Shown: positions 4,781-56,851 of the stretch, piece after piece
Numbering within the stretch: position 1 is the stretch's first letter
Layout: each line of letters opens with the position of its first letter
Virus record (IMG/VR): IMGVR_UViG_3300033147_000418
Coordinates: 2,193 to 66,192 of that record
DNA: 64,000 bases
Origin: a virus
Lineage: Duplodnaviria; Caudoviricetes
Direction: 5' to 3' (one strand)
Notes under the pieces: model-generated
Told to the model about the DNA's origin: nothing
Seen by the model: only the letters and a program-made list of their open reading frames with translations
The model's database searches: none
Program-made: the position numbers and the translations under genes

Positions 4781-5071
4781 CTACCGGCCGCGGCGCGACA
4801 TGCGCCCCACGGCCTTCAGTCCGAGCGCGGCGAGCAGCCCACCGACGACGCCTTTGCCCAGGGCACCCTTGAACGAGCCCTCCGGCCCGTAGTCGCCGGT
4901 CAGCCCCGCCTTCGTTACCTGGGCACCGTGGAGCGCGCCGGAGCTGAGGGCGCCTGTGGCGGCCAGTCGCTCGACGAGCCGATCTGGCCGCGGCCCCATG
5001 AACCGGGCAACCTTCTTTAGGCCGCCCGGTTCGATTCGAATGAGCTCGTCGGTGAATGCCTCGAGGAACAT
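4781..5071 (-). CDS. small Gly-rich putative internal virion protein (FxDEL leader variant)
   Basis: N-terminus MFLEAFTDELIRI; C-terminal GVVGGLLAALGL hydrophobic segment. Confidence 0.65.
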   Translation of the reverse strand: MFLEAFTDELIRIEPGGLKKVARFMGPRPDRLVERLAATGALSSGALHGAQVTKAGLTGDYGPEGSFKGALGKGVVGGLLAALGLKAVGRMSRRGR

Positions 5072-5073
5072 GG

Positions 5074-5850
5074 CTACTGGTTGGCGAACAGCGGAACTCC
5101 GGCGCCGGAGAGCATCATGCGGATGGGGCGAACCCTATCGAACTGGAGGCTGACGCCCTCCATGAGAAGGACCGACCCGGAGCTGATCGACAGCTGGTGC
5201 CCCTGAACGTAGCACTCCTCGAGGTAGACGGCGCCGAGCGTCATGTCGAGCTGGTTGCGGAAGTAGATCGCGAGTCCGGTGGGCTGGTTGAAGATGTCCG
5301 AGGCCAGGTTCAGCCACAGGTTGTCGAAGCCTGGGCTGTACTTGACCCGGTGGAGCTCCTGCTGGAGCGCGGGCAGCTCGAGCATGGTGGCGTTGGGGTG
5401 CGGGATGTCGATGCCGCCGATCGGAAGAGTGGCGTCTTTGCCCTCGGAGTTGATCTGGATGGCGCCCGACGCGGTCTGCTTGTAGTGAGCGTACAGCACC
5501 TTGAGCAGGGACGGTCCGTGGTAGAGGACCCTGCCTAGGGTCACCGACCCAATGGTGCGCCCGGGGATGAAGTAGCTGCGGCTCGAGCCGATCTCGAAGA
5601 TGCGCTGCAGCTGCTTGGACTGGCTCAGCCCCACGTTCTCGAGCACCCCGATGGGGAAGACCTGGTCGGCTTCGGGGTCGTCGATGGTCGAGTCACCGTT
5701 GCCGATGTCGGACAGCCTCGGCGGGCCGGCGGCGATCAGCGTTGTTTCAGCGCTGACGAACTCGCCACCAAAGAGCTCGCTCTGGACGTGGTGGTTGTGG
5801 AAGTCCCAGTTATTGAAGGCAGTTGTGGCTGCTGGACGAATACGAGACAT
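5074..5850 (-). CDS. putative tail tube protein
   Basis: Immediately downstream of the sheath; IGVLENVGLSQSKQLQRIFEIGS...GSVTLGRV is a tube-like pattern. Confidence 0.65.
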   Translation of the reverse strand: MSRIRPAATTAFNNWDFHNHHVQSELFGGEFVSAETTLIAAGPPRLSDIGNGDSTIDDPEADQVFPIGVLENVGLSQSKQLQRIFEIGSSRSYFIPGRTIGSVTLGRVLYHGPSLLKVLYAHYKQTASGAIQINSEGKDATLPIGGIDIPHPNATMLELPALQQELHRVKYSPGFDNLWLNLASDIFNQPTGLAIYFRNQLDMTLGAVYLEECYVQGHQLSISSGSVLLMEGVSLQFDRVRPIRMMLSGAGVPLFANQ

Positions 5851-5876
5851 GCGCGGTTCTCCTTCTCAGGGCTCCC

Positions 5877-8714
5877 CTACACCAGGAGGGTCAGCTTGAT
5901 GTTGTTGAGCGGCAGCGGCACATCGATGTCGATGTCGATCTCCACGGTGTCGGCGTTAGTCGAAGACTCTTCGATGCGAACGAGTGAGCCGTTGCGGATG
6001 GGTGCGCCCACGCGCGCGGCGCGCTGCTCGAGCAGGAACTGGATCCCAGCTTCGCCGCGGGTCTTGAGCAGGTCCAGCAGCGTGTCCGTGATGTTGTAGA
6101 CCCCGATGAACGGGCGATACACGGTGCGGAAGAACCGGGCGATGAGGTCCACGTTCTTGGTGACCGACAACTCCTGGAACAGGATCGCCGACAGGTCGGT
6201 GGTGAGCTGGTGGCGGATGCTGAGAGCTGCGTCGGCAACGGGCTGCGTGAAGATGAAGTTGCCGCCGCCGGCGATCGTGTCGAGCTGGGTGTCGCTGAAC
6301 CTGTCGTCCGAGTTCTCTCGGCCGACGAACCCGGCAACGCTCAGGTTGGTGAACCCGGCCTGGCTCGGCAGGCCAGCGCACATCCCGGCAAGGACGGCGC
6401 CGGCGAAGTAGCCGGGGACCTTCGTCGCGACCGAATTGACAGAGACCGCCAAGATGTCGGGCCACGTGTGGATGACGCGCCTGGAGGCGAACGACGTCGC
6501 GTAGCCTGCCAGGAAGGTCGCCTGCTCAGCCAGGGTGAGGTCCTTGACGATGGTGTAGACCACGTCTTCGATGGTGCCGCCGAATCCAGCGGTCGGGTCG
6601 GACACGAGGGCCAGCTGGCTCTCCGAGGTGATCGACTCGACCGCGTGCCGCGTCCCCGTGATGAACGCGTCCTCGGCCGTGCTCGGAGTGATCGAGAGGA
6701 GGTCCAGCGTGGTGAGTCCGGTCTGCGGCAGGAGGCCGGAGAACACCTCGGTGACCGGGGTGGTCAGATTGCTGGTGCGGACTTTGGTCGTGGACAGGAC
6801 GGCCTCGATGACGTGGTCGGCGTTGTTGCCGGCCTCCTGGGCCCCAGCAACGCTGAGCTTGCGGCCGACATCCTCGGACGTGAAGATCGCCCCCAGGATC
6901 GTCCATTCGCGGCTGGTGCCGTTGACTTCGTCGGATGCGATGTCGCGGGCCGGATCTCGATTGATGATGTAGATGTCGGCGGTGACGTCGCCCGCCGTGA
7001 AAGTCTCGGTGGCAGCGGGAACCTCGACGGTCGTGATGGTCGTAGCGTTGACGAACCCGCCGATGAGGAAGACCCCGTTGTTGCCGGCGGTGGGGGCGTT
7101 CGTGACGAACATGAGCCGCCCGACATCGGCCTCGGTGAATGCCCCGCCCGCGAAGACCCACGTCTTCGTGGCCGCGTTGACGTTGTCGGCGACGTTGACG
7201 CCGGAGCTGCGCGACAGATCGGCAATCCACGCGCGTGTGGTGCTCACCATGAGCTCGGCCGCCGCCGGCGCCGGCGAGACCGTGACGTTGACGGGGCTGT
7301 TGATGGTGCCGATGTCGTAGACCTGGTCGTTGCCAGGCGTGGTGGCGTCTCGGACCAGGATGAAGCGGACGAGGTCGCCGGAGACGAATGCCGCGTTGGT
7401 CATCTGGATGGCGAGCGCGGTGTCCTCGAACCAGTCACTCTCGTCCGGGGTGACCGAACGATGGATCCCCTGGACCGCCGTGTAGGCGCTGATCTCGATG
7501 AAATGGCCTACGTTGACGCCGTCGGTGATGTAGCCACCGTTCGTGGGGTCCTTGAAGATCTTGTTCGTTGCCCCGCTGGTGCCGTTGCCAGCTCCGGCCG
7601 AGGTCACCGACCCAATGCCGCTCGAGGGGACCACGGTCTCTTCCTCGACCAGGGTCCGGTTGATGAACGCGATGCGCTCCCGGCCGATGGTGGACAAGGA
7701 CATGCCTTCGACGTGAGTCTTGGCGGTCTGGTGGACGGCGGTGTTGTGGGTCAGGACAGAGATGGCGTAGACGTCCTTGGACTCCAGGTACTCGAACGCC
7801 GTCTGCCACGAGGCCTCCTCCGCAGAGAAGAAATCGCTCCCGAGCCCGGTGAAGGACACCTCGGTGGTGGTGTTCTGCAGGGCGAGGTTGACCGCGTAGG
7901 CGCCGGCGTTGGCCGGAACGACGGCACCGACACCGAAGATCGCTTCGAGCGAGTCCAGGTCGGTGAAGACGTTGAGGGCGCTGGCCAGGTCCGGGCGCAG
8001 CGCGCGCCACGACAGAAGGATCGTGGCTTCGACGACGGGGAGCGCAACGGTGTCGAGGGACGCGAGTCCGGGTAGAACGTCGACCGAGTCTGCGTCGGCG
8101 CTGATTCCGTTGTCGGAGAAGTCCGCGTTCGTGTATTCCTCTTCCTCGCGGAACTCGAGCACGCGATATTCGACGTTGGTCAGCGGCAGGGTGCTCTGCC
8201 ACTCGGCCGCGACGACGAGGTTGTTGTCGTCGGTCTTGCTGATGACCAGCTTGCGGCCGACATCTGCGGCGTCGATGCCCGCGGCCGCGATCACGTCGAT
8301 GTAGAACGTGGGAGCTCCGCTGGCGTCCGGATCGAACGCCGAGAATGCACCGGTGGAATTGTCCGTGAACACGTTCGGCGTTGCCAGCTGGCCCGTGATC
8401 AGGCTTGTCGACGGAAGCGTGGGCTCCTTGACGAGGTACGCGTTCGAGAGCTTCAAGCTCACTGGCTTGTGGGCGTTGGCCTCAGCCTCGCTCGTCGGCG
8501 CGGCGTCCAGGTCGACGACGGCGCCGGCCGTCAGGCCGCTGTACGAGTAGGACGTGATACCGAGATCATCCTCGGAGTACGCCCCGACGCTCACGTCTTC
8601 GGCGATTTGAAAGCCAGGGCCGGCCACGACGGCGGGCAAGGACGGCAGCGCGAGAGCGGCCGCGGCGTTCTGAAACTCTTGAATGACTTCGATTGCAGGT
8701 CGGCGGTATGCCAT
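5877..8714 (-). CDS. contractile tail sheath protein with inserted repeat domains
   Basis: N-terminus MAYRRPAIEVIQE; C-terminal sheath features (VPGYFAGAVLAG, IRHQLTTD, ELSVTKNVD, VPLPLNNIKLTL); 945 aa. Confidence 0.85.
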   Translation of the reverse strand: MAYRRPAIEVIQEFQNAAAALALPSLPAVVAGPGFQIAEDVSVGAYSEDDLGITSYSYSGLTAGAVVDLDAAPTSEAEANAHKPVSLKLSNAYLVKEPTLPSTSLITGQLATPNVFTDNSTGAFSAFDPDASGAPTFYIDVIAAAGIDAADVGRKLVISKTDDNNLVVAAEWQSTLPLTNVEYRVLEFREEEEYTNADFSDNGISADADSVDVLPGLASLDTVALPVVEATILLSWRALRPDLASALNVFTDLDSLEAIFGVGAVVPANAGAYAVNLALQNTTTEVSFTGLGSDFFSAEEASWQTAFEYLESKDVYAISVLTHNTAVHQTAKTHVEGMSLSTIGRERIAFINRTLVEEETVVPSSGIGSVTSAGAGNGTSGATNKIFKDPTNGGYITDGVNVGHFIEISAYTAVQGIHRSVTPDESDWFEDTALAIQMTNAAFVSGDLVRFILVRDATTPGNDQVYDIGTINSPVNVTVSPAPAAAELMVSTTRAWIADLSRSSGVNVADNVNAATKTWVFAGGAFTEADVGRLMFVTNAPTAGNNGVFLIGGFVNATTITTVEVPAATETFTAGDVTADIYIINRDPARDIASDEVNGTSREWTILGAIFTSEDVGRKLSVAGAQEAGNNADHVIEAVLSTTKVRTSNLTTPVTEVFSGLLPQTGLTTLDLLSITPSTAEDAFITGTRHAVESITSESQLALVSDPTAGFGGTIEDVVYTIVKDLTLAEQATFLAGYATSFASRRVIHTWPDILAVSVNSVATKVPGYFAGAVLAGMCAGLPSQAGFTNLSVAGFVGRENSDDRFSDTQLDTIAGGGNFIFTQPVADAALSIRHQLTTDLSAILFQELSVTKNVDLIARFFRTVYRPFIGVYNITDTLLDLLKTRGEAGIQFLLEQRAARVGAPIRNGSLVRIEESSTNADTVEIDIDIDVPLPLNNIKLTLLV

Positions 8715-8737
8715 CTAACGCTCCTCCTGATTGCTCG

Positions 8738-9403: not shown

Positions 9404-9924
9404 TACTGCTCAGGATGCTGACGGGCAACTGTCTTGAACGCGCCTTCGTAAGCATCCACGATACCTGTACGCACCGTGTCTGTCACCGTCTGTTCCACGG
9501 TTGAGTCGGCTTGCTCCTGCTTCTGCTGAGCAAAAACCTCCTTGGCGCTGATGGTGCGAAAAACCAGACGCTCTTTCCCCGTAGCGTCCCTCTGCATCTT
9601 GGGCACCCCGGAGCTGGGCTCGAACAGTTCGTCCACGCTGCTGGCCATGGTCTGGTCGGTCTCTTCGACCTGGTCGCCGGCGGCGCCGAGGACTGCGCCC
9701 TGGTCGGCCCTGTCGATGACGAGCCGATTACCCTCCGCTGTCACTCGAACGGCCTGAGCTCGATGAGCAGATCTAACGTCGAGGCCGTGGTCGACTCGTC
9801 CGCGGAGTCTCAGCTGAACGTCTTCGGCTAGTCGTTCGCGGGCGAGTTCGTTGACCTCGTCTCGGCGAGTGATCCTGGCGTCCTCGGACGGAACGATCTG
9901 GATCATGTCGCCGAAGCCGATCAC
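9403..9924 (-). CDS. hypothetical protein (neck region)
   Basis: Translationally coupled to both neighbours. Confidence 0.6.
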   Translation of the reverse strand: MIGFGDMIQIVPSEDARITRRDEVNELARERLAEDVQLRLRGRVDHGLDVRSAHRAQAVRVTAEGNRLVIDRADQGAVLGAAGDQVEETDQTMASSVDELFEPSSGVPKMQRDATGKERLVFRTISAKEVFAQQKQEQADSTVEQTVTDTVRTGIVDAYEGAFKTVARQHPEQ

Positions 9925-10160
9925 TGCTGTCCCGCTGAGTATCCAACCATTTGGTTTGGGGTAGTGAGAGGGGTCGGCGCGCGCTTCGTCGGCGCCGGCG
10001 GGGTGAGCGTGGTGCGCCCCCCTTTTAGGCCCGACCCGGAGACCTGCTTCATGACAGCTGCCACCGAGCTTCCTGAGTCGTAGGAGGAGGCAACTTCGTG
10101 CTGGGGGAAAGCCCCAATCTTCATGAGTTCGTTGCCGAATCCGCGCAAGAAATGGTTCAT
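9921..10160 (-). CDS. small protein with GFxNELxK leader
   Basis: ATG at 10160 overlaps the upstream stop; begins MNHFLRGFGNELMKIGA. Confidence 0.7.
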   Translation of the reverse strand: MNHFLRGFGNELMKIGAFPQHEVASSYDSGSSVAAVMKQVSGSGLKGGRTTLTPPAPTKRAPTPLTTPNQMVGYSAGQQ

Positions 10161-11557: not shown

Positions 11558-12085
<528 letters not shown>

Positions 12086-12129: not shown

Positions 12130-13023
12130 CTAGGTGAGCGTCATCTTGGCCGCGGCGCGCAGGTTGCCGTAGCCGAGTCCGATGTACTCCCAGGTCTGCC
12201 ACGAGACCATGTCGGCCCGCTTCTCGATGTAGAACTTCGTGTCGTTGAGGATGTAGAAGTTCCCGAGGTACTTCGGGTCGGTGAAGATGTACAGGTCACC
12301 GGGGGGCACGATCGACGACTTGATCGTCACGACCAGCTTGTGGCCGAGGATGGTGTTGTACTTGTACCCGTTGACGAGAACCTCGGACGCCAGCGGCGAG
12401 CCGATGATCGCGGACTCCTGGGTCATGAAGTCGTCCCAGTCGGCCTTGTGCATCAGGATGCAACCGACGGCGAGTTCGTCCGTGTCCAGGGCCTTGAACA
12501 GCTTCACCAGGTTCTCGGACGTCGCGGGGCCGGCGGCCGCCGGGACGATCGTCTTGCCGTTCGCGACGATGACCGCGTCGGTGAACTCGATGAACTTGCC
12601 ATCCTCGATCTTCTGGATGTCCTTGACCGAGTTCTCCTCGATGACCTTGGTCACCGGGTAGTCGAAGGCCAGGAGCTCCGCTTCGTTCTTGCGAAACTTC
12701 TCGCTCTCGATCTTGAAGAACGGGATCTCGTAGCGGTCGCCCTCGATGTAGCGCTCGAAGGCCTTGCCGCGGAAGTTGACCGCGGCGGCGTTCGACTGCG
12801 GCTCGATGTCGACGATCTTGACGAGCGTGTCGTGGTTGACGGAGCGCTGGCAGTCCGCTTTGGTGACGTACTCGGGCGGCAGGATGCTGCGCGTGAACGA
12901 TACCTCGCGCAGGCGCTCGCGCACGAATGCGCCACCGGCCTGTGCAGCCTTCTCGAGCCCGTCGTGGGTGTCGAGGCGTGAGATGAAGAGGTTGTTGAAA
13001 GTGGCGGCGTCGATCTGGTCCAT
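12130..13023 (-). CDS. major capsid protein (HK97-like fold)
   Basis: 297 aa after scaffold/decoration genes; IQKIEDGKFI spine helix, ILGHKLVVT, VPPGDLYIF, WEYIGLGYGN; strong SD AAGGAG. Confidence 0.8.
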   Translation of the reverse strand: MDQIDAATFNNLFISRLDTHDGLEKAAQAGGAFVRERLREVSFTRSILPPEYVTKADCQRSVNHDTLVKIVDIEPQSNAAAVNFRGKAFERYIEGDRYEIPFFKIESEKFRKNEAELLAFDYPVTKVIEENSVKDIQKIEDGKFIEFTDAVIVANGKTIVPAAAGPATSENLVKLFKALDTDELAVGCILMHKADWDDFMTQESAIIGSPLASEVLVNGYKYNTILGHKLVVTIKSSIVPPGDLYIFTDPKYLGNFYILNDTKFYIEKRADMVSWQTWEYIGLGYGNLRAAAKMTLT

Positions 13024-13611: not shown

Positions 13612-13932
13612 TTAGTCTTCCGCCAGTCTATGGAAGAAGGCGGCGTGAGCATCTGCTGGGACGTCGCTCTCTGATGCGATCTTGCCGAATTCCGGCAGCG
13701 TAACATCGAGCTCGAGAGCCTCTGCCACGACGCGCAGGTCCTTCTGCATCAGGCCAGCGACCTTCTCCTCGAACTCGACGAACGACTCGAACGGCGGCAC
13801 CTTGCCGCGCTCGACCATCGAGAACGCAAGCTTCTCGGCATCGGTGCGAAGTTTGGCCAGCTCGAGCGCGTCGGCGGCCTCCTTGAGCAACGAGTCCTTG
13901 TTCTCGATCGGGGTGTCTTTGCTGGTTGACAT
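13612..13932 (-). CDS. putative scaffolding protein
   Basis: Acidic helical protein with KEA, KLA, KVA and KIA motifs, upstream of the decoration and capsid genes. Confidence 0.5.
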   Translation of the reverse strand: MSTSKDTPIENKDSLLKEAADALELAKLRTDAEKLAFSMVERGKVPPFESFVEFEEKVAGLMQKDLRVVAEALELDVTLPEFGKIASESDVPADAHAAFFHRLAED

Positions 13933-14065: not shown

Positions 14066-14947
14066 CTACGAGTTCACGACGACGACGCCGCGCTTCCCGG
14101 AAGGCTTGTCCTTGCCGCCGCCGCCGATTGCGCGGTGCGCTAGAGCTCCGCCGCCGAGGTAGAGGGCGGGCTTTTTCACCTTGTCCAGCTGCTTTGACGA
14201 GAGTCCGACGCTCTTGTCCCCCACGTTGAGGCCGACTGCAGCCTTGCCGCCGCCGGTCGCGGCGCCACCTCCGGTCGCGGCAGCTTTGGGGACTGCTTTC
14301 TGCAAGCTCTTGTACGCATCCAGGTCCTTGAAGCCTTTGGCGTTTGTTGCAGTGAACACGCTCATCGCACTTTGCGCGCCGAGCTCTCGCTGCATGCGCG
14401 ACACCAGCGCGGCGCGCTCACCTTCCCTGAGGTTGCCGGACTTCTGTACGATGTCCTGCCACTCGCGGAAGTTGCGGCCTACCTGCGCGTCACCCTTGGC
14501 GATGGTTTTGCCGGCCTGTCGGGCGCCGCGGGCCGCGCGCCAGTTCTGAACTCCGCGAACGGCGCGCCCAAGAAAAGCGTTCTTCTCGAGGAAATCAGCA
14601 ACGGCTTCGGGGCTGTGCCCTTGCTCGAGGGCGGCCGCGACAAAGTCGGCCTCGCCCGGGTGTTCGGACGAGGCCGTCTTCGAATGCACTGGAGGGGTGC
14701 CGTTGTCGATGGCGCTGATCTCCGCCATGGCGCGGCGGATGACCGCAACGGAAGCCGTCTTTTCGACCAACCCCTGCGCCGCGGCCGCTTCGTGATCGGC
14801 GTCAGTTGCGTTGACGGCCGCGCGGCAGCGATCGGCGAGTTTCATGAGGTCGTGCTTGGCAGGCTCGGAAGCCTGCTTCGCAAGGTGAGCCCCGCTGATA
14901 CGGTTGACGCCCGTTTCGTCGAGGAGCTGGTCGAGTGTGTAGCCCAT
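14066..14947 (-). CDS. putative internal head protein (K-x-A family)
   Basis: Acidic N-half with KQA, KTA, KTA and KNA; basic Gly/Ala-rich C-half. Confidence 0.65.
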   Translation of the reverse strand: MGYTLDQLLDETGVNRISGAHLAKQASEPAKHDLMKLADRCRAAVNATDADHEAAAAQGLVEKTASVAVIRRAMAEISAIDNGTPPVHSKTASSEHPGEADFVAAALEQGHSPEAVADFLEKNAFLGRAVRGVQNWRAARGARQAGKTIAKGDAQVGRNFREWQDIVQKSGNLREGERAALVSRMQRELGAQSAMSVFTATNAKGFKDLDAYKSLQKAVPKAAATGGGAATGGGKAAVGLNVGDKSVGLSSKQLDKVKKPALYLGGGALAHRAIGGGGKDKPSGKRGVVVVNS

Positions 14948-38550: not shown

Positions 38551-38558
38551 TGGGGCTC

Positions 38559-41420: not shown

Positions 41421-41461
41421 GGGGGAGGGGTCGGGTGGTTCCCCCCTCCCCCCTTTTTAGC
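41421..41461 (+). terminator. hairpin terminator with TTTTTAGC
   Basis: GGGGGAGGGG...CCCCTCCCCC stem, then TTTTTAGC. Confidence 0.7.
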
Positions 41462-45500: not shown

Positions 45501-48500
45501 CCTTGTTCGGCGAACTCCCCGGTCTCGGGGTCGATGAAGACTTCTCCTCGGATCAGTCCCTCGAACTGCGCCTTCTTCAGCTCCGTTTTCTTTGGTCCGA
45601 TGTCGATTAGCTTCTTGATGGGGGTTTCGAACACGGGATTCGGGATCGGCTCCGCGAGCTCGATGTGCCCCCAGCGAGTGCCTTCCCTGCCCCCGAAGAT
45701 TTGCCGGTCCATCAAGCCGGTCTTCATCTCGCTCATCTTCCCCGAGTAGATGAATACAGGCGACTCCACCTCACCATTGCTCAGGCTGGCCGTCTCCTTG
45801 TCCGTCATGGGGCCAACAACCAGCCTTGAGCCGTTTCGCTCCACGTTTACGCCCGCGGCCTTCAAGTAGGCTTCGAACTTCCGATAGGCGAAAGTCGGCT
45901 TTGGTGGCGGGGGAGCCTGAATGCCCGTGTGCTCCGCGGTGCCGGTCAACCAGGTCCAGAAGTCCTCGTTCTTCTCCGCCTTGTACGTCGCCATCTCTCG
46001 AAGGTTTGCTCGCGCGCCGTGCGCCAGCATCGAGTACATCGAGATCATGTCGAGAGACTTCGAGCCGTCGTCTCCACCGCGCAAAGGCTGGCGGTTGATG
46101 TCGTATTTTCCATCGTCGCGCGCCGAAAACTGAGACGTTGCCTGCTTCGACAGCTTGAGGATGTACTGGGGGCCGACAAGCACCTCGCCGAGAGGCTTCT
46201 TGCTCTTCGGATCGTAAAGCGTTTCGACGTCTGAAATACCCGCAACGGCGAGGGCCTTCTTCACGGTTACGGCGTGATTTTCACCGTTGAAGTTATCCAC
46301 CGCGTACGGCTTCTTGCCGAGGTCCGCGATCTTGGCTGCCGCTGTTTCAAGCAGCTGCGAAGGGTTGATCCTACTCACCACGCCGGCGGGGTTCAGCAGG
46401 ATATCGACAGGCTTCCCATCGGCTGTGTGTGGTGCGTCACTGACCGGGATGATGCGCGTGATGATGCCCTTGCCGCCGTGTCGGTTGGTCAGCTTGTCGC
46501 CGATTTGCGCAGGCTCTTCGGTCTTCACGTAGACCTTGACGCGCTGCCCTTCCTTCACGACGTCAATGACCGTACCGACCGCATCCCCATGCCAGGTTTC
46601 CTCAAAGCCTAGAACCTCCTTGTGGGTCTTCAGCATCCGCTTAGCGGTGATGATCTCCGGGTCGTACTTGTTCTGGCGAACGCCTGCCCAGAGCGGGTCT
46701 CCCTTGTGGATCTTCGTCCCCTTCTTGATCACCCCATCGTCGTCCAACATAGCGAGCAACTCAGGTGAAAGCCCGTTCGCCTTGTGCGCGCGGTATTTGG
46801 CTTTGGACAGCTCCGAGCTGCCCTCGATCTTGAACACGTATTCGTGCAGATGTTCGCTGGTGAGCTGCTCGGCCGCATCCTCCGTGATGACGATCCCGTC
46901 TTCGAAGTTGTAGCCTTTCCACGGGATGTACGCGGCGCGCAAGTTCGTGCCCAACGCGAGCGTCCCGTCCCTGGTGAAGTTCGAGTCCGCAAGCACGTCG
47001 CCCGCGCCGACTTCGTCGCCCGGCTTCACCGTAGGTGTCGCGTTGAGAAAGGCTTTGTTGTTGAGGGGCAGGTTGTTGTAGACCGGGTATTCGACATCTC
47101 GCCCCCGGGTGGTGATAACGATCTTGGTCTTCGACACGCTCTTGACGACGCCGGCGTCGATTGAGCGAATCGAAAAGCCTGAACCCAAAGCGTCCTCGAT
47201 CGTGCCACGGCCGATCTTGACCTGGACAAGCGGGGCTTGGCGATGCTTGAGGGGGATAGCCTGCTCGAGCATCTTCGTCGCCATCTGTGCGCGAACGCCC
47301 TGCGCCGACGCCAGGAACGGGATCGTGTTCGACGCGACAGAGAATGCCTGGCGCGCGCTCTTCAGCACCACGTCGACCTTCTTTGGGTCAACCAGCTGAT
47401 GTTCGCCGGCCACGAGGGCCTTGACCTTCTTGCCAATGGGTTTTCCATCAGGGAACTGGTCGGGGAAAGAGAGAACCAGATCCTTCATCTCCGAAGGAGA
47501 GACCCTGCGCGTGGACTTCTTTCGTCGGTCGTAAACGAGGGTCATCAGCTGATCGCCGCTCTTGGTTACCCCGACAGGAAGAGTCATCACCAGCCCGATG
47601 TTCTCTGAGTCCGGCGTGTGAATAGGATCGATGAAGCCTGCCTGCGACGGATGGAGCGAATGCGCTGCATTCCCGGCGCGCTGGGCGCTGGCCAACCCCC
47701 CTTCGCCCAGTACCGTGATCTTGGACATTCCGTTGATCATGTTGAGCGGGTTGGTTTGATCGGTGGTGTTCGAGAGCGCGCTGCTGGTAAAAAACGAGTC
47801 GATGATCGGCGAGAGAGCGCTTGGGCGAATGACGTCCTTGACGGCCTCTGGCTTGTATCTGTAGCTGCGCAGCTTCTTGAGGATCCCCTTCCGAAACCCC
47901 TCCATCACGGGAGTGAGTTCACCGTTCTCCTTGATGAACCGTTCCTTGATGAGGTCGGAAACGCTAAGCGTTTTCTTGTACTCGAGCGCATGGCGGTCGT
48001 CCGGTCGCCGATCCCCGGTGGTAGCGAGCATGACCTGCTTCGCTGCGTCGGCCAAAACTTCGCCACTGACCTTCTTGTACCGAACGCCGACCGTCTCCTC
48101 GGTTACGTTGGGATCCAACACCGCTTCTGCAAACTGCTCGCGGAGCTTCTCTACGGCCTGGTCGGCCGACACGTACTCCCCCGGGTGCAAAGCCTTCGCG
48201 ATACTGATGACAGACTGAGCACTTTTCTTTTCGCTGATGGCCTTGTTCGCCGCGAGCGTCGACTCGCCCCACTTTTTTGCCAGCAGCGAATCTGAGATTC
48301 CGAGCCTGGACAAGAGCGGATAGAGAGGCCACGCGCTGGATCCGCGCACAACGCTGAACTTGCCAGTAGCAACGTCCATCTCGATCCCGAACGAGCGCCC
48401 CGTCGTCATCACCTCCGCTTTCATGTCGCGGCTCTTCTTCTGGGTGACGTAGATGCCCGGGCGACGACGCAACTGGTTGTAGACCTGGTAGTGCTTGCCG

Positions 48501-48820
48501 TTGACGATGAAGCTGCCGAGTGTCGTGTTTTTGGGGAGGATGGCCAGCCGTATCTTCGGTTCGCGCGAGAGAACCTTCCCGGTGTTTCGGTCTATGAGCT
48601 CGACGTCGGCGTAAACCGGAACGCCCCAGGTCTTGTCCTTGCGCGAAGCGTCGCGCTGCCCTTTCCAGTCCTGCGGGTCCTTGTTGTCGTTGACCCAAAC
48701 CTTCCTGGCTCGCAGCGACAGCCCCGCCTTCGCCGCGTCTGCGGTGAGAGCCTTCGTGAACGCCTGCGCGACGTTCTTTTTGATGAGCTCAAATTGGCCG
48801 TCGTAGTCGAAGGTCTCCAT
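42563..48820 (-). CDS. rpoBC: single-chain DNA-directed RNA polymerase, beta-beta' fusion (~2085 aa)
   Basis: Beta motifs GSFIVNG, DQTNPL, TPDSENIGL, GYNFEDG, GDKLTNRHGGKG, NPAGVVSRIN; beta' motifs GHIELA, NRAPSLH, NADFDGD, SGARG, CAKCYG, MRTFHQGG, all in one frame. Start is ATG 48820 or GTG 48832. Confidence 0.95.
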   Translation of the reverse strand: METFDYDGQFELIKKNVAQAFTKALTADAAKAGLSLRARKVWVNDNKDPQDWKGQRDASRKDKTWGVPVYADVELIDRNTGKVLSREPKIRLAILPKNTTLGSFIVNGKHYQVYNQLRRRPGIYVTQKKSRDMKAEVMTTGRSFGIEMDVATGKFSVVRGSSAWPLYPLLSRLGISDSLLAKKWGESTLAANKAISEKKSAQSVISIAKALHPGEYVSADQAVEKLREQFAEAVLDPNVTEETVGVRYKKVSGEVLADAAKQVMLATTGDRRPDDRHALEYKKTLSVSDLIKERFIKENGELTPVMEGFRKGILKKLRSYRYKPEAVKDVIRPSALSPIIDSFFTSSALSNTTDQTNPLNMINGMSKITVLGEGGLASAQRAGNAAHSLHPSQAGFIDPIHTPDSENIGLVMTLPVGVTKSGDQLMTLVYDRRKKSTRRVSPSEMKDLVLSFPDQFPDGKPIGKKVKALVAGEHQLVDPKKVDVVLKSARQAFSVASNTIPFLASAQGVRAQMATKMLEQAIPLKHRQAPLVQVKIGRGTIEDALGSGFSIRSIDAGVVKSVSKTKIVITTRGRDVEYPVYNNLPLNNKAFLNATPTVKPGDEVGAGDVLADSNFTRDGTLALGTNLRAAYIPWKGYNFEDGIVITEDAAEQLTSEHLHEYVFKIEGSSELSKAKYRAHKANGLSPELLAMLDDDGVIKKGTKIHKGDPLWAGVRQNKYDPEIITAKRMLKTHKEVLGFEETWHGDAVGTVIDVVKEGQRVKVYVKTEEPAQIGDKLTNRHGGKGIITRIIPVSDAPHTADGKPVDILLNPAGVVSRINPSQLLETAAAKIADLGKKPYAVDNFNGENHAVTVKKALAVAGISDVETLYDPKSKKPLGEVLVGPQYILKLSKQATSQFSARDDGKYDINRQPLRGGDDGSKSLDMISMYSMLAHGARANLREMATYKAEKNEDFWTWLTGTAEHTGIQAPPPPKPTFAYRKFEAYLKAAGVNVERNGSRLVVGPMTDKETASLSNGEVESPVFIYSGKMSEMKTGLMDRQIFGGREGTRWGHIELAEPIPNPVFETPIKKLIDIGPKKTELKKAQFEGLIRGEVFIDPETGEFAEQGLTGGAAFKYLLSKIDVDTELAHWTDEAKKARGTTKLNRAHTKIKYLRALKKLGVRPEDAYLQTKIPVMPPVFRPIIEMADGDLSVPGLNNLYRDIGLINNELKWQNEVPFITDAIKAQWRGKLYEGTKALAGFTSPIAYYPEKRRPKGIVEQIKGTSPKTGFFQDKLVSRRQDLVGRGTIIPEPKLGLDEVGLPLDMSWKLYSPFVRRRLVVHGGMSPQEAQEAVADRSAAAAAMLTQEMQKRPVILNRAPSLHKFSIMAFKPQVTDGKAIKIPPLVVKGFNADFDGDAMTVHVPILDDAIREAEGMLPSKHLYNPGTGRVMIAPQNESSLGLYLMSKDPKLRKQIAAVLPPKTSKEFGGKVLTQEVLDGMVKSVADELPNEYGDVVDKLKRLGDDHAYNFGVTVSLNDLLPPIPEKDALFKKTFAEVSALRLDTKKGREAAADKLDAVNEEIDAIVEKSLDKQGNNFRLMVRSGARGNMNQLKQIVSAPFMVDDHRGNPSPIPITTSFAAGLPFSDYWSTLYGARASAVDKQLQTANPGAFNKDIMAAAITNVVSKDDCMTTEGLKLPTESVDVEDRFLSKDIRVGGRVLAKAGDAVTSVMLAELQKRKIEQIDVRSPIMCKMPKGTCAKCYGLNEFGTLPAIGDNIGAVAGQSLSEPLTQMTMRTFHQGGISGTRTAISGYAKIDKLFKMYKVKQGKAMLAPAAGRVQRIEKDPDGRGRNVFIDGAVDKKGNPKPVFIPEPEWNSSRIRTGSVVTKGQILSDGIVEPKELVELTKDLPTALSYISGEIQDAYDKQGAPIKRRNIETVLRSIGNTTKILDPGGSSYLRNELAPWTEVRSFNEQSLGKMSVDDVVGHILKEDIPGAKKGRIIDERTKTLIQRAGKSEVEVGPRPIIDLPELHGIERVPMLRKDWMSQLGYRKLVESLVRGATEGEESDIHGYAPVPSFVYGAEFGAEGGLDLQGKAKTTSRSKTEGVY

Positions 48821-48840
48821 CAAGGCACTCACGTTGTTGC

Positions 48841-48857
48841 GGCATAAGCCTAGTGCA
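48841..48857 (+). promoter_or_regulatory. putative phage promoter GGYATAAG-N6-G
   Basis: GGCATAAGcctagtGCA, divergent from the RNAP gene. Confidence 0.5.
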
Positions 48858-48952
48858 GGAGGAGTTATAGGAACTCGTCGACGATCGCGAGTAGCGTTGG
48901 CGTCGGAACGATCGCATCCTTCGGTCTTCCGCTCATCGGTCACGGGCTTACC

Positions 48953-49147
48953 ATGTCCGAGGTTCCCTCGATCGCCCTGGGCGCGGGCAAGAGCGTCTTG
49001 CTCTTCGGGGGCAAGGCACTCCTCTTCCTGGGGGTTGGCGTCGGGATCCTGTACCTCGGACGCTGGGTGCTCAGCGGCATCCTGGACTGGGCCGATAGGG
49101 TCGAGGCGCGCGTGGAGCGTATCCGCCCCCGGGCGGAAGTAGTGTAG
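48953..49147 (+). CDS. small membrane protein
   Basis: ALLFLGVGVGILYLG transmembrane-like segment. Confidence 0.55.
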   Translation: MSEVPSIALGAGKSVLLFGGKALLFLGVGVGILYLGRWVLSGILDWADRVEARVERIRPRAEVV

Positions 49148-49148
49148 C

Positions 49149-49610
49149 GTGATTACCGCCGCGCACCTCTGGTACAGGTACGGAATTGGACCCCAGAAGA
49201 ACGACAAGAAGCCGTCGTTCTTCGGGTTCGCTCGCGTTGCTGGTGTTGCCGCGGTAGTCGTTCCCGCCCATGGATACGTGATTGGCAGTCGAGGCGCTGT
49301 GTCGCTCGGTCTCCAATCGATCAGGGGCCCCCTATGGAAGATCGTGAACAAGTTCTTCGGCGCGGTGGCGTGGATGTTTGCCATCTCGGCCGGGCTTTGG
49401 CTTGTGCAACACTTCACCGAACGGTGGACTGGTGCCGGGTATCCGATGATCTTCCCAAGCGTCGCCACGATCGCCGGTCAGCAAGCAGGGAACACGCAAC
49501 CAGGTAACAGAAGGGACGGTATCCCGAACGGTCTCGGAGCCGGCTCTGCACATAGGAGGACGCAAAGTAACGACTCGGACCTGTCGGACATCTTCTTCTC
49601 CGGTCGCTAG
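49149..49610 (+). CDS. putative membrane protein
   Basis: Two hydrophobic segments; convergent with 49607. Confidence 0.55.
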   Translation: MITAAHLWYRYGIGPQKNDKKPSFFGFARVAGVAAVVVPAHGYVIGSRGAVSLGLQSIRGPLWKIVNKFFGAVAWMFAISAGLWLVQHFTERWTGAGYPMIFPSVATIAGQQAGNTQPGNRRDGIPNGLGAGSAHRRTQSNDSDLSDIFFSGR

Positions 49611-50969: not shown

Positions 50970-51261
50970 CGGATTCTCCTTTGGTGCGTTTGGGGGGTTT
51001 CTCCCAGTAATGTACCACCAGGTACACGTCTTCCTGGGTGGTCACGATCCCTTCGGGGCCACCCTCTCTAATCACCGTCTTGCGGGTGTACTCGCGGATT
51101 TGCTCGATATTGATTCCGCTCGAAGCGTTGTTCGCGTTGGTGCGAAGGTCGCCGTAGGTGACCATGTCCTCTGGTTCGAACATGTTGAACGACTTGCACC
51201 TGAATTCGCCCATGCTCTTGGCCGAATCTGCGAACTTGACCTCGGTTGCTTTGGCGGCCAT
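50917..51261 (-). CDS. hypothetical protein
   Basis: Coupled to the portal stop; 114 aa. Confidence 0.6.
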   Translation of the reverse strand: MAAKATEVKFADSAKSMGEFRCKSFNMFEPEDMVTYGDLRTNANNASSGINIEQIREYTRKTVIREGGPEGIVTTQEDVYLVVHYWEKPPKRTKGESDEDEQKQRDLQSVSSGS

Positions 51262-53321
51262 CAGACGCTCCCGTCCTTGCGCCGCGGCGGCGCCTTCTGA
51301 GGCAAAGGCTTCATCCGGTCGGAGACGGCCGCTGCGGTTTCGCCAGGCCGCATCTGACCGAGCAGTTGTTCCACGATCCGAGCCATGTTCGGCATGCGGC
51401 GTCTCAGGTCATCCAGGACAGCGACGCGCTGAGCTGACTCCATCTTGGAGATTTTGTTCGCCCACTGCTTGGCGATACGAGCGGCATCCATCTCGACGAC
51501 TTGCCCGCCCCCAGACTGCTCACCGGCCTGTCCTGCCACCTGCGCCGGCATCTCAGCTGCTTGGCCTTGAGCTGCCTGGGTGGCCATCTGGCTGTCGTCG
51601 GCTACAGCGCCGCCCGAGGGCGGCGGCGCCGCTCCTGGCTGCTGTGGGGCTGCCTGCCCCGGCGGCTGTTGACCAGCCTGGCCCGGCGCACCCTCCTGGG
51701 GCGGCGGCGCTCCTGGCTGCTGTGGAGCGCCACCTTCGCCGGACACCTGCCCCTGGGCCTGCTCGGCCTGTGCCGGCTGGCCGCCAGAGATCGCACCCTG
51801 CGCCTCATTGAACGCCTCTTGCGCGCGCGCCTGGTACTTGGCCTGAACAATCTGCGATTCGCCCTGAGCCTCGGCCTGAGCCTTCATTGTGATGGCCTGG
51901 ATCCGGTTGCGCGACTCGGCTTCCTTCTCGATCATCTCCTGCTCGTCGTCGTAGTCGAAACCGAGCTCGGTGAGCATTGTGTGATCGGAAATCTTGTTGG
52001 CGGCGTTCAGCTGGATGACGATCTGCTTGCGCTGGATGTCGTCCGCCATCTTGAACTCGGTGAAGCCGATGTCGACATCGGGCATCCCGAGATAGAGGCG
52101 CAGGCGATTCTTCGCCCAGTTGACGAAGCGAAGCAGAAGTCGCCGGTACATGAGGAAGTGGTTCTCGAGGGTGCGAAGAGACACGCTCGAGCCAGACCAG
52201 GAGAGCCCGCCGAAGACGAACTCGATGGGCACGCCCATCCCGCCCGTGATCTCCTTGTTCGTGACCTCGATCTCGGGCCCGAGCAGAAGCGCGCGACCGT
52301 CGCCGCCGAGGCGCTCGAAACCGAGCGGAACCGAGACCACGGAGATGTAGTTCGGGTCGACCCGCCACTTGCGGATCTCGGTCTGCACCGTGCCTTGCCA
52401 GCTCGAGAGGTTGACGTGCTGGTAGGGGTCCTGCTGGCCGTTGGCCTGCGGGAAGATGAACTCGAGCGGCATGATCCGCTGCAGCGCGATCGCTTCCTGC
52501 GCGCGCCGGAGCACGTACAGGTAGAACATCCGCCCCATCGAGTGAATGATGAGCGGCTTGCCCCAACCCATGTCTTGCTCGGCGAGTGTGGGGCGCTTGA
52601 AGTGGAAGAGGTTCTGATCGCTGAGCGCGATAGACCGCTTCTTCCGGAGCGCCTCAAAGAAGATCGCCGGGATGTCTACGATGATCTCCCGGGTGCCGTC
52701 CTGGATAGCCTTGCGGATCTTGTTGGGGATCTTGTAGCGGTACTTGGACCGCCCCGTGATCGGGTTGTAGTGGATGTCGATGTTCTTCGGATCCCATCGA
52801 ACGAAGTTGATGCCTGTCCGGTCGCGCACAGGCACATCCACGATTTCGCCGATCACGTTACTGCCGCAGCCTGGGCACGCGATGCTGAACTGGAAATTCT
52901 TGAACGAGAACTTGAACTCGGGGTCTGCCAGCTTGTGCATGGACTTGCAGACAGGGCAGCGAATCCATCGAATGAACGGCAGGTTCAGCGAGATGAACGC
53001 GTTGCCGTAGCAGAAATAGTCGAGCCCGATCTCGATCAGGAACGGCTTGAAGTTGAGGGTGTCCTCGAGCAGCTCGCGCCATGCCTCGCGGACGTGCTTC
53101 TCTTGGGCGTTGTAGACGAAATCCGTGACCGGGTACTCGGCGACCTTGGTCACCACGGCCCCGATCATCGGGTCCTTGTAGAAGAAGTACTGGCACCACC
53201 GGAAGAGCTCCTTCACGGTGGGCGGCATGTAGGTTTGCGCGATGTCGAAGAACGGTGACGGATACACCGTCCCGCGACGTCGGTCGACCTGCGACAGCCC
53301 TATCGATTGGTCATCAGCCAT
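51261..53321 (-). CDS. portal protein
   Basis: DYFCYGNAFI, RWDPKNI, GWGKPLI, ITGGMGVPIEFVFGG; Zn-ribbon insert; Q/P/A-rich tail. Confidence 0.85.
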   Translation of the reverse strand: MADDQSIGLSQVDRRRGTVYPSPFFDIAQTYMPPTVKELFRWCQYFFYKDPMIGAVVTKVAEYPVTDFVYNAQEKHVREAWRELLEDTLNFKPFLIEIGLDYFCYGNAFISLNLPFIRWIRCPVCKSMHKLADPEFKFSFKNFQFSIACPGCGSNVIGEIVDVPVRDRTGINFVRWDPKNIDIHYNPITGRSKYRYKIPNKIRKAIQDGTREIIVDIPAIFFEALRKKRSIALSDQNLFHFKRPTLAEQDMGWGKPLIIHSMGRMFYLYVLRRAQEAIALQRIMPLEFIFPQANGQQDPYQHVNLSSWQGTVQTEIRKWRVDPNYISVVSVPLGFERLGGDGRALLLGPEIEVTNKEITGGMGVPIEFVFGGLSWSGSSVSLRTLENHFLMYRRLLLRFVNWAKNRLRLYLGMPDVDIGFTEFKMADDIQRKQIVIQLNAANKISDHTMLTELGFDYDDEQEMIEKEAESRNRIQAITMKAQAEAQGESQIVQAKYQARAQEAFNEAQGAISGGQPAQAEQAQGQVSGEGGAPQQPGAPPPQEGAPGQAGQQPPGQAAPQQPGAAPPPSGGAVADDSQMATQAAQGQAAEMPAQVAGQAGEQSGGGQVVEMDAARIAKQWANKISKMESAQRVAVLDDLRRRMPNMARIVEQLLGQMRPGETAAAVSDRMKPLPQKAPPRRKDGSV

Positions 53322-53335
53322 GGTTCAAGGTCGCG

Positions 53336-54544: not shown

Positions 54545-54546
54545 GC

Positions 54547-54735
54547 TCAGCCTCCGTTGGCCCACCAGGGCCCGCGACCGCTACCGGCGGCCGGATCGTA
54601 ACCGGACTTGGCGACATCGTCGCGCGCACTTCTCACGCTATTGGCAAGCCGGTCCAAGTACTCTTTCCGAAAATCGGACAACAACCGTGCAATCTCTCGC
54701 GCTGCCAGGGTTTTCTCCTGCTCAGTCTCACTCAT
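54547..54735 (-). CDS. small hypothetical protein
   Basis: MSETEQEK..., ATGA-coupled to the upstream gene; fills the gap. Confidence 0.55.
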   Translation of the reverse strand: MSETEQEKTLAAREIARLLSDFRKEYLDRLANSVRSARDDVAKSGYDPAAGSGRGPWWANGG

Positions 54736-55706
54736 GATGGCACAGCCGCGCTTGTGGTTGTAGACCCTACGTCGATGCCCAAGGGCGCGCCGCGGAGCGC
54801 CTCTTGCCGGTTGAGGTAGTCCTGGACAGCGAACAGCTTCACGATGTGCACGTCGACCGGGTTGTCCTTGCGCCACTCGATCTCGACCGGGTCGTGCTCG
54901 CGTACCTGCAGCCACGTCGCCTCAACATCGCTGCGTAGCCCTACGGTCCAATCCTTCCGGTCCAGTAGCGCTTGGGCGCCCGCGAAGTACTCCTCCGGCG
55001 CATAGACGAACCCGTACTCCTCGAGTATGGCTGCGATGTACGCGTTGATCTCGTTCTCGAACGCCTCGCTCTCCCGTACCCCGCGGAGGATCTGCACGGT
55101 GAAGGCTGCCTGCGACGGCGTCATCGGCTGATAGGCCCCGAATATTGGGGCGACCCCGTTCCAGGCAAGCCCGGCATTCTCGAACACGTCCCAGTCGAGC
55201 CAGAGAGTATCCGTCAGGGCTGCGACGCGGAGAGCCCCGATCTTGTCGCGCGCGAGCTTGCCGACGGGACCAAAGTCCCTCCGCAGCGCCCACCACAGCG
55301 TGGGCGGCTCCCAGGACGCCCACTGCTCCTTGTAGCGAAGGTTGAGGGTGTCGAAAATCTCCAGCGGGTGCGATCGCTTGTCAGAAAAGAGCACCCCATG
55401 CGTCAGCCTCGAGGGGAGCTCTGGCTCTGGCGTCGGCTCCTCCCCGGGCGCGAGCTCGGGCTCGGCATCTGCAGTTGGGACCTCCGTGGCCTCCTCGGGC
55501 CCGGCAGCCTCGGGGGCTGTCTCTGGCTCGCTGGCGCCATCGGCGGCCTGGGCCTCGAGCTGCTTCAGGACCGTCGGCGACACGCTCTCGACGCCGAGAG
55601 CGCTGGCGGTGTCCGGATCGAGCTCAGCAACCTTCTCTACCGGGGCATCCGAGATGATGGCCCCGAAGAAGGCTTGTTCGACCTCGTCGGGTGTATGTCG
55701 CCCCAC
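54732..55706 (-). CDS. hypothetical head-region protein
   Basis: GTG 2 nt after the upstream stop; EKVA, an acidic Pro-rich linker, and a Trp-rich globular domain. Confidence 0.6.
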   Translation of the reverse strand: MGRHTPDEVEQAFFGAIISDAPVEKVAELDPDTASALGVESVSPTVLKQLEAQAADGASEPETAPEAAGPEEATEVPTADAEPELAPGEEPTPEPELPSRLTHGVLFSDKRSHPLEIFDTLNLRYKEQWASWEPPTLWWALRRDFGPVGKLARDKIGALRVAALTDTLWLDWDVFENAGLAWNGVAPIFGAYQPMTPSQAAFTVQILRGVRESEAFENEINAYIAAILEEYGFVYAPEEYFAGAQALLDRKDWTVGLRSDVEATWLQVREHDPVEIEWRKDNPVDVHIVKLFAVQDYLNRQEALRGAPLGIDVGSTTTSAAVPS

Positions 55707-55708
55707 CG

Positions 55709-56851
55709 CTAGGCCTCGCCGGAGATGACCTGCTTGATGAGGACCTTCTCGGGCGTCGGCAGCGATTCGAATACTTCGGATGGATGCTCGGAGAACTGGC
55801 GAGCGAACGACTCGCCGAGGTAGCCGGCGATCTTCTTGATGGTTGCCGGTTTGCGAAGGTCTTCGTCGGTGATCGTCCGTCCGTCGATGTCGGCAGACCA
55901 GCCGTCGGCTTTCTTGCTCATCGAGCTCGCAAACGGGTCCGTCAGCCCACGGTCGTAGTACCGCGTGAGACCGGTGGCCTGGTCGAAGGTCTGGAGCGCA
56001 GACGCCATGTCCTCCGGGTCCGTCTCTTCGAGCGCTGCAGCCAGCTTGTTGAGCACGGCGCAGGCGCCCTCGTTGCGTGGAAGGAGCGACTTGCGCTGCT
56101 CGATGTGGGCGACCACGTGACGGTTCCAGGTACTCGATGCCCACTTGCTGAGCAGCATGTTGTCGGAGACGTCGACGCCGAGCTCGGTTGCCCGGTTTGT
56201 CACCGAGGTTGCAAAGCGATGGCGGTGCTCCGGCGCAAGGTCCATCGCGTACTTGTCGAAGTAGTTCGCTGCCAGCTTGACATGCCCCGCGTCGGGCATC
56301 GCGTACTTGCGGATGACGGTTCCATCGCCGTCACGAGCCACGAGAGCAAAGTGCTCGTTCGGCATGTCGATGAGTGCGTTGATTTCGACAGCGTCGGCTT
56401 GCTTCGTCATGAGCTCGCGCTTGGCCAGCTTTTGCAGCATCCATCGCTGCTCGGAGCCTTCGGTGAAGGTGTTGTGCTGGACGTCGTCAGATGCACGTGC
56501 GGCATAGCCATCGACAAGCGGCGACGTCGGCACACCGTACGCGTCGCACGCCGACTTGATGAACTTCGCTGCGACGAACCTGGCGGGGAATGCCAGTTTC
56601 TCGTGTGTCTGCTGGAAGTACTGCGCGCTTAGCCACGCATTGCCCGGGTCGCAAACAGGGAACTTTCGCAGAACAGAGGCGCGCTTGGTGAGCACAACCA
56701 AGCCAAAGTCTGTGTCTGGCATCTGCTCGATCTGCTCGGGTGTCAGCACGGTAACGTGCGTGTCCCCGAGGGAGTCGGGCATCGCGACTTTGCTCATGAG
56801 CTCGTGAGAGCTGTCGTCGTAAAAATCGAGAACCGCGGCCGAAATCGTCAT
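55709..56851 (-). CDS. putative head protein (K-x-A family)
   Basis: About 12 K-x-A motifs; internal duplication of a D..F.LV......RK(F/Y)...D......A.YF...L motif. Confidence 0.7.
   Translation of the reverse strand: MTISAAVLDFYDDSSHELMSKVAMPDSLGDTHVTVLTPEQIEQMPDTDFGLVVLTKRASVLRKFPVCDPGNAWLSAQYFQQTHEKLAFPARFVAAKFIKSACDAYGVPTSPLVDGYAARASDDVQHNTFTEGSEQRWMLQKLAKRELMTKQADAVEINALIDMPNEHFALVARDGDGTVIRKYAMPDAGHVKLAANYFDKYAMDLAPEHRHRFATSVTNRATELGVDVSDNMLLSKWASSTWNRHVVAHIEQRKSLLPRNEGACAVLNKLAAALEETDPEDMASALQTFDQATGLTRYYDRGLTDPFASSMSKKADGWSADIDGRTITDEDLRKPATIKKIAGYLGESFARQFSEHPSEVFESLPTPEKVLIKQVISGEA

Follow-up and report, generated by a model that had tools for sequence, protein, structure and literature searches.

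A candidate capsid-loading tag and K-x-A cutting rule in the head modules of a myovirus clade that includes Salmonella phage Arash

To our knowledge, experiments have established the cutting rules of prohead proteases in no more than a handful of phages, such as T4, phiKZ and its relatives, and SPN3US, and T4 is the main case in which a targeting tag defined by its sequence has been characterised well. The part of PMC9026906 that deals with the capsid-targeting sequence (CTS) of T4 assigns targeting to its residues 4 and 7 and the direction of processing to its residues 8 and 10. In phiKZ and SPN3US, propeptides with multiple sites are cut by the prohead protease, according to the corresponding parts of PMC9026906 and PMC10052503. 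Here we analyse a 64,000-nucleotide stretch of phage DNA (positions 2,193 to 66,192 of the IMG/VR record IMGVR_UViG_3300033147_000418; hereafter referred to as the window), in which otherwise unlike proteins share an N-terminal leader and proteins of the head module carry K-x-A sites. We interpret these features as a T4-style capsid-loading tag and a prohead-protease cutting rule, both with sequences unlike those of T4, and assign to this reading a probability of about 0.55; cleavage and loading are the parts of it that we infer.

The window, cut from a virus contig of 66,192 bases, has a G+C content of about 62%, and almost all of its genes lie on the minus strand, to which the features described below belong unless marked otherwise. 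We found 34 related loci in IMG/VR, 8 of which have capsid protein identities of 88–96% (G+C 51–69%), the remaining ones having identities of 43–51% (G+C 34–50%). The nearest cultured relative, as judged by the capsid protein, is Salmonella phage Arash (32% identity).

Six otherwise unlike proteins of the window, most of them small, basic and Gly/Ala-rich, are headed by a tag of 15–16 residues with the consensus M-x-x-F-L-x-G-F-x-D-E-L-x-K-x-[A/G]. Five of the N-terminal copies are on the minus strand, with starts at 5071, 10160, 18928, 20498 and 23436 (the last a GTG), and the sixth starts at 25690, on the plus strand; each opens an open reading frame (ORF) or follows an in-frame Met. A cognate form, AAGRIMARGF[Y/A]DE[F/M]xKLA, is found inside two scaffold-like proteins (15583–16302 and 18944–19237). 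The eight peptides that the original prediction had listed as sharing one motif, six N-terminal and two internal, were thus all found at the places it gave. Three regular expressions applied to the six-frame translation returned 6, 8 and 7 copies of the tag, as compared with means of 0.0, 0.01 and 0.02 by chance, estimated from 100 second-order Markov random sequences in which trinucleotide statistics were preserved. The helical hydrophobic moment of five of the six leaders was matched by only 0.3–2.5% of their own shuffles, indicating that the tag is an amphipathic helix. Its end, K-x-[A/G/S], matches the K-x-A context enriched in head proteins (see below), which we take provisionally as a cleavage motif.

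The tagged proteins differ in what follows the leader. The 96-amino acid protein encoded at 4781–5071 (MFLEAFTDELIRI...), downstream of the tail tube gene, is Gly/Ala-rich with a basic C-terminus, and its leader belongs to a weaker subtype (Q[AS]FxDEL in relatives). The 79-amino acid protein of 9921–10160 (MNHFLRGFGNELMKIG...) starts within a one-base overlap with the stop of the upstream gene. In the 238-amino acid protein of 18212–18928 (MDSFLTGFCDELLKVA...), the remainder is rich in Pro, Ala, Arg and Lys and has a net charge of +25, and the 103-amino acid protein of 23125–23436 (TPFLGGFVDELAKHA...), with the GTG start, is likewise basic, +15 past the leader. The only copy on the plus strand heads a basic protein of 160 amino acids (25690–26172, MVPFLRGFTDELVKIS...), whose family keeps the leader in five relatives. 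The copy starting at 20498 is in frame within a 276-amino acid ORF (20172–21002) that consists of an HExxH peptidase-like N-terminal part, EKVA-M, the leader MSFLEGFSNEIFKTA and a basic, Gly-zipper-like tail; this leader has its own ATG, with aaggag 9 nucleotides upstream and EKVA before it, and the in-frame join of the HExxH part to the leader is present in six relatives.

The tag is kept at syntenic genes of the close relatives (88–96% capsid identity), and the remainders of the proteins diverge faster. In the clearest case, that of the gene just upstream of the protease gene, identity over seven syntenic genes was 0.57 in the tag and 0.26 in the remainder; the corresponding values for the other syntenic sets were 0.63 and 0.45, 0.49 and 0.39, and 0.50 and 0.45. 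A DNA pattern for F-x-D-E-L-x-K gave 4, 7, 7, 7 and 9 matches in five whole related contigs, whereas the reversed control gave 0. Among the 31 distinct tag sites in the fetched loci of five relatives, 16 are placed 3 to 8 residues past a Met, 2 are similarly placed but with no ATG in view, 4 stand behind an HExxH domain as EKxA-M, 8 are scaffold copies and 1 is of another kind. Tagged proteins of the relatives range from 101 to 411 amino acids and are mostly basic and Gly/Ala-rich. The largest tagged cargo seen is the 411-amino acid protein of one IMG/VR relative (L043:1480–2712, plus strand; leader MNHFLSGFTDELVKIA), the body of which has no Pfam match; it is a candidate packaged enzyme. The scaffold form, GRxMARxFxDExxKxA, is the most widely kept copy of the tag; even distant AT-rich relatives have it, about 2 kb upstream of the capsid gene. 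The leader regular expressions found no FLxGFxDELxK copy in 40 kb of Arash, so that only some members of the clade may have this form of the tag; a short stretch finishing in K-S-A is present at the N-terminus of Arash gp224.

To quantify the K-x-A signal, we counted the motif and compared the counts with those in residue shuffles of each protein. In the genes at 9.9–26 kb, which form the head set, 71 K-x-A were observed as compared with 44.7 expected (z 4.4, 1.6-fold), whereas all other genes of the window had 85 as compared with 75.9 (z 1.1). The controls R-x-A, E-x-A, A-x-K, K-x-L and K-x-G were flat in the window. The original prediction had proposed that K-x-[AGS] be counted in head and other proteins. 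Head enrichment was borne out for K-x-A, and the wider motif was weaker (z 2.9) because K-x-G and K-x-S contribute nothing; K-x-S and K-x-G being flat both in the window and in its relatives, we rejected K-x-[AGS] and take the code to be K-x-A. An unsupervised scan of all residue pairs with gaps of 0 to 3 placed D-x-x-K, L-x-K, K-x-A, E-x-x-A and EK at the top of the head set, and these pairs combine into a single motif, [D/E][D/E]-L-E-K-x-A; L-x-E was absent from the top enriched pairs. For calibration, we applied the same observed-to-expected count to T4, where [L/I]-x-E was found 55 times as compared with 29.0 expected (1.90-fold) in gp20, 67, 68, 21, 22, 23 and 24, and 48 times as compared with 47.4 in a set of 14 proteins of the neck, tail and terminase. 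As the proven motif of T4 gives 1.90-fold, the size of the K-x-A signal is what a true cleavage code produces.

The signal recurs in distant relatives. Proteins encoded upstream of the capsid gene were enriched in K-x-A in all 12 of the distant genomes examined, including Arash (z 2.6 to 5.9; G+C 34–53%), these genomes being not all mutually independent. Summed over them, the upstream proteins had 551 K-x-A as compared with 298.6 expected (about 1.85-fold) and the downstream proteins 121 as compared with 131.2; A-x-K, K-x-S, K-x-G, R-x-A and E-x-A were flat. The logo built from 406 sites in upstream proteins of nine relatives read [DE][DE][MFLI]E-K-x-A-[ES], whereas 95 downstream sites gave no logo, and the broader context in head proteins of the clade is [D/E][D/E]-hydrophobic-E-K-x-A-[S/E/A/M]. 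One acidic protein of 172 amino acids in a relative of 37% G+C (L021) has seven K-x-A sites, and Arash gp222, gp223 and gp224 share a K-x-A-[S/A/E] pattern. In alignments of the window's proteins with up to seven close relatives, the site K and the site A were each retained in 76% of the ortholog cells (245 of 323), as compared with 51% for other K, 50% for other A and 54% for the middle residue.

The gene at 16307–18211, which lies among the scaffold-like genes near the major capsid gene, encodes a protein of 634 amino acids that had been put forward as the protease. Across 19 sequences, roughly the first 230 residues show strong conservation, and all 19 share H104, H105, the S157 of V-S-M-G and a CxxC...CxH knuckle without variation. 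An AlphaFold model of the domain (predicted local distance difference test score, pLDDT, 82.4) had the T4 gp21 structure 5jbl as its best Foldseek match (E 2.5e-3). VIA-align superimposed it on 5jbl_A with a Z of 12.1, a root-mean-square deviation of 3.1 and 142 of 165 residues aligned; the proteases of varicella-zoster virus (VZV, Z 5.7) and human cytomegalovirus (HCMV, Z 4.6) came next, and the next unrelated matches had Z values of at most 4.6. PHROGs gave a modest match to phrog_18299, ‘head maturation protease’ (1.5e-5). Residues 1 to about 228 are therefore predicted to adopt the fold of a T4 gp21-type prohead protease, in agreement with the earlier assignment.

K-x-A sites stand at the borders of this domain. 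K33-M-A35 and K226-V-A228 flank it, and the C-terminal extension of about 400 residues carries six more. Within the 19 proteases, K-x-A occurs at residues 27–34 in 19/19 and K-[V/L/I]-A at the domain end in 18/19 (the other has K-V-G), the latter position falling within the disordered tail of the model. The major capsid protein, of HK97 type (12130–13023; phrog_2522 at 1.3e-15), contains the N-terminal K-x-A to which the original prediction had pointed (LEKAA): it is K25-A-A27, in which K25 and A27 are invariant in 20/20 and the middle residue varies. K-x-A is present in 25 of 26 capsid sequences, and K25-A-A27 is a candidate maturation site. Prediction of a complex between the capsid protein, the protease domain and the 79-amino acid leader protein scored 0.01 against a mark of 0.32, which speaks neither for nor against binding.

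The scaffold-like proteins are acidic and rich in the motif. In the 239-amino acid protein of 15583–16302 (6 K-x-A as compared with 1.6 expected, z 3.5), all six sites lie in the acidic N-terminal half, the last within AAGRIMARGFYDEFSKLA, and the C-terminal 100 residues are conserved and site-free. The motif is still conserved in relatives whose capsid identity is as low as 46%, and the alignment of the family shows T-K-x-A-S persisting amid acidic sequence that varies. A paralogue of 97 amino acids (18944–19237), with AAGRIMARGFADEMNKLA internally, keeps the site K and A in 18/18 cells, whereas its other K residues are kept in 1/30. Another acidic paralogue, of 183 amino acids (14987–15538), has five K-x-A; it also contains a (DK)n run and, after this, a Cys-rich patch (CKKCSHKSCKGDGCSDCPDC). 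In the acidic head protein of 106 amino acids (13612–13932; 4 sites as compared with 1.3 expected, z 2.6), the site K and A are kept in 24/24 ortholog cells. A head protein of 293 amino acids (14066–14947), with a Gly-rich basic C-terminus, has eight sites. Proteins of 314 amino acids (23433–24377; 8 as compared with 2.2, z 4.4), 849 amino acids (36355–38904; 9, DELVKIA included, as compared with 3.9, z 2.9) and 380 amino acids (55709–56851; 14, z 8.0) are likewise enriched. Further counts were 9 for the protease protein, 2 for the capsid protein and, for the genes at 19265, 20999, 22433, 41457 and 53336, 2, 2, 3, 1 and 10, respectively. All the proteins previously named as K-x-A bearers do contain the motif, but the last five are not enriched in it (z -1.7 to 1.2). 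Similarly, the proposed change from acidic sequence before the last site to basic sequence after it was seen in the products of 15583, 18944, 19265, 20172 and 23125 and is not general among the proteins.

These observations suggest the following scheme. The protease would cut at K-x-A, probably after Ala (K as P3, A as P1). It would trim its own catalytic domain at either end, remove about 27 residues from the capsid protein and chop the acidic scaffold-like proteins into peptides. The first half of the leader (FLxGF) would dock cargo onto the assembling core; since the tag closely resembles the scaffold helix GRIMARGFxDExxKLA, mimicry of this helix may be what brings cargo into the core. The second half (DELxKxA) would be where the cargo is cut free within the head, and the cargo would then remain associated with the DNA, as internal or ejected proteins. 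We regard it as probable that K-x-A marks cuts: as judged from sequence, the motif behaves like a cleavage code, in that it is enriched in the head module only across the clade, has a free middle residue, and occurs at the ends of the protease domain and the capsid N-terminus. For the targeting of cargo by the tag, the odds are close to even or slightly below. The notion of an analogous but different code, in which the leader packages and the protease cuts at K-x-A, thus stands as far as the fold, the head-only enrichment, the conservation and the placement of sites are concerned, with cleavage and packaging still at the level of proposals.

Several observations weigh against this interpretation. 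When PDB sequences were searched with its profile, the protease domain was linked to no solved structure, and a Pfam scan of the 19 protease members yielded no usable family (Peptidase_S78 in 1/19, E 0.089); a fold search was needed because these scans gave nothing usable. Several leaders finish in K-x-G, K-x-S or R-x-E rather than K-x-A. The mutual dependence among some of the distant genomes lessens the weight of their agreement. K-x-A is mildly enriched in the head proteins of T4 as well (25 as compared with 16.7, z 2.0), although it is not the T4 cut motif, so that part of the signal may be generic to helical scaffold and core proteins. The sites of the 55709 protein are kept in relatives at 68–73% identity and mostly lost at 22% identity, and some of them fall in structural repeats; we consider it doubtful that these are cut sites, and doubtful that this protein is the best substrate. 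The HExxH proteins are possible cutting enzymes; within the DNA searched, they were found only in close relatives. The main text of the Arash paper has zero occurrences of ‘protease’ or ‘cleav’, and its Table 2 lists 80–100% coverage for gp218–gp226, which, if it is residue coverage, leaves little room for removed propeptides. As a separate observation on the 55709–56851 protein, its internal repeats, RK[FY][PA]x.D...(H)V.LAA.YF at residues about 62–80 and 180–200, have no family match.

An alternative is that F-x-D-E-L-x-K-x-A is an uncleaved assembly helix, a scaffold-derived docking element that holds core proteins to one another, to the shell or to the portal, with K and A kept for packing. 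The most widely conserved copy is the scaffold-like one, which nearly all relatives have a short way upstream of the capsid gene; the leaders, too, are amphipathic helices, the T4 head proteins show their mild K-x-A enrichment where the motif has no role in cleavage, and the 55709 sites are partly in repeats. Against it, K-x-A persists as islands in otherwise variable acidic stretches, as in the 15583 family, the middle residue is free, and in 18 to 19 of the 19 proteases sites occupy both borders of the domain, including the disordered linker at its end; moreover, up to seven sites in one acidic protein of 172 amino acids is the pattern of the multi-cut propeptides of phiKZ and SPN3US. We consider the uncleaved helix unlikely, at roughly one chance in five.

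It is considerably less likely that the leader is a membrane or localisation signal and that the small Gly-zipper proteins serve lysis, superinfection exclusion or membrane-bound prohead assembly without being packaged. Amphipathic N-terminal helices, Gly-zipper-like hydrophobic stretches and basic tails would suit such a role, as would weak sub-threshold matches to a holin family (E 0.092) and a Gly-zipper family (E 0.023). No match above threshold was obtained when the window's leader, scaffold-like and K-x-A-rich proteins were compared with Pfam and PHROGs, or when six leader proteins from relatives were compared with Pfam. However, the genes lie within the head module beside the protease and scaffold-like genes, the motif also occurs inside soluble acidic scaffold-like proteins, and the leader finishes in the head-specific K-x-A context. 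Of 24 proteins put through a Kyte-Doolittle scan, just 3 had a transmembrane-like segment of 19 residues, and none of these was among the six leader proteins. The membrane conduit proposed in the original prediction had Gly-zipper-like stretches as its sole basis; by analogy with the internal proteins of T4, basic DNA-associated internal proteins fit at least as well as membrane-active cargo.

The window also encodes three HExxH peptidase-like proteins (20172–21002, 20999–22423 and 41457–42566, all minus), the last being a distant paralogue of the second (E 4.4e-50, iterative search). Any of them might cut K-x-A in place of the gp21-type serine protease, given that lysine-directed metallopeptidases exist and that the head module contains genes for two HExxH proteins, one of them fused to a leader. 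An iterative search nevertheless found HExxH proteins only in the window and seven close relatives, within the DNA searched, whereas the gp21-type protease and the K-x-A enrichment both occur in distant relatives and Arash, and sites border the serine protease's own domain. We judge this explanation improbable, marginally more so than a membrane signal. Least tenable is an artefact of chance or composition in the Lys/Ala/Glu-rich helical proteins of a high-G+C genome, for although the proteins were chosen after the motif had been seen and five named ones are not individually enriched, it is contradicted by the flat reversed A-x-K and four other controls, by the recurrence of the enrichment at G+C 34–53% in relatives, by the shared flanking logo and by the better conservation of the sites than of other K and A residues.

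Elsewhere in the window, family searches identified the tail sheath (5877–8714), the large terminase (33686–35455) and the portal (51261–53321). Adjoining the capsid gene is a protein of 175 amino acids (11558–12085, minus) with a low-complexity AEAEAEAE / AAKAEAE run and a KKKKRGGKN tail, which is poorly conserved in close relatives (identity 0.33). An ORF of 2301 amino acids (42563–49468, minus), which we took as RNA polymerase, has 9 K-x-A as compared with 17.0 expected (z -2.1). In Arash virions, the RNA polymerase beta subunit gave the most spectra (Arash paper), and the polymerase of the window may, by analogy, be packaged and avoid cut sites. Avoidance of K-x-A by proteins that need to stay whole was nonetheless too weak to adopt as a general rule, the polymerase having a z of -2.1 and the tail side of the relatives only 121 as compared with 131.2.

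Taking the tag and the cutting rule together, we propose, somewhat tentatively and at a little less than even odds, that a widespread, largely uncultured clade of RNA-polymerase-carrying myoviruses, including Arash, possesses an undescribed specificity of the gp21 fold (Lys at P3, Ala at P1) and a portable, scaffold-derived, amphipathic tag of 15 residues that co-polymerises arbitrary cargo into the prohead core. A limited search of the open-access literature returned no paper with a K-x-A prohead cleavage rule or such a tag, which is not proof of absence. If the proposal is true, this would be a second pair of rule and tag with unrelated sequences, and the same logic would have evolved repeatedly around one protease fold. 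K-x-A would then allow mature virion proteins to be predicted from sequence across a large uncultured clade, the small basic proteins and the 411-amino acid protein would be probable injected or internal cargo, and the tag would offer a second, orthogonal capsid-loading handle for foreign proteins beside the T4 CTS. The hypothesis is directly testable, as Arash is in culture and has the same K-x-A pattern.

Among the described systems, the CTS of T4 (on IPI, IPII, IPIII and Alt) with gp21 is the closest in logic. As in the T4 sections of PMC9026906, a short N-terminal peptide is shared by unlike, mostly small and basic head proteins and finishes in what is presumed to be the protease motif. 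The gp21 protease fold (Z 12.1), acidic core proteins with many sites and a motif enriched about 1.9-fold in head proteins only are further likenesses. The tag differs, however, in having about 15 residues (FLxGFxDELxKxA) as compared with the 10 given for T4 in that source, in the motif itself (K-x-A instead of (L/I)-x-E) and in having a copy inside scaffold-like proteins, and the protease differs in its zinc-knuckle insert and its C-terminal extension of about 400 residues. Since the tag does not end in (L/I)-x-E and L-x-E is not a top pair, we do not place it within the T4 CTS sequence family but regard it as analogous.

The systems of phiKZ (gp175) and SPN3US (gp245), as described in the relevant parts of PMC9026906 and PMC10052503, resemble this one in their long acidic propeptides with several redundant three-residue sites (six in the N-terminal half of the 15583 protein and seven in the L021 protein), in the processing of the protease itself, which here would be self-trimming, and in the packaging of RNA polymerase, seen here in a relative of the window phage (Arash). 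They differ in specificity, with Glu at P1 (S/A-x-E or A-x-E in those parts) as compared with the presumed Ala at P1 and Lys at P3, E-x-A being flat here. The contigs of 66 to 190 kb represent smaller genomes, and a shared N-terminal tag is present here, whereas the same parts of the two sources describe a CTS for T4 only.

The assemblin-scaffold fusion of herpesviruses, in the account given in part of PMC4498786, likewise has an N-terminal protease, a long C-terminal part and a cleavage site at the domain border, exactly where the candidate self-cleavage site lies here. At the R and M sites quoted there (YLQA-T and VQA-S), Ala precedes the cut and Ser is often next, as at the presumed cuts of the window's proteins. 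The folds are related (VZV, Z 5.7; HCMV, Z 4.6), but the herpesvirus match is much weaker than that to gp21, and the quoted sites are without Lys at P3.

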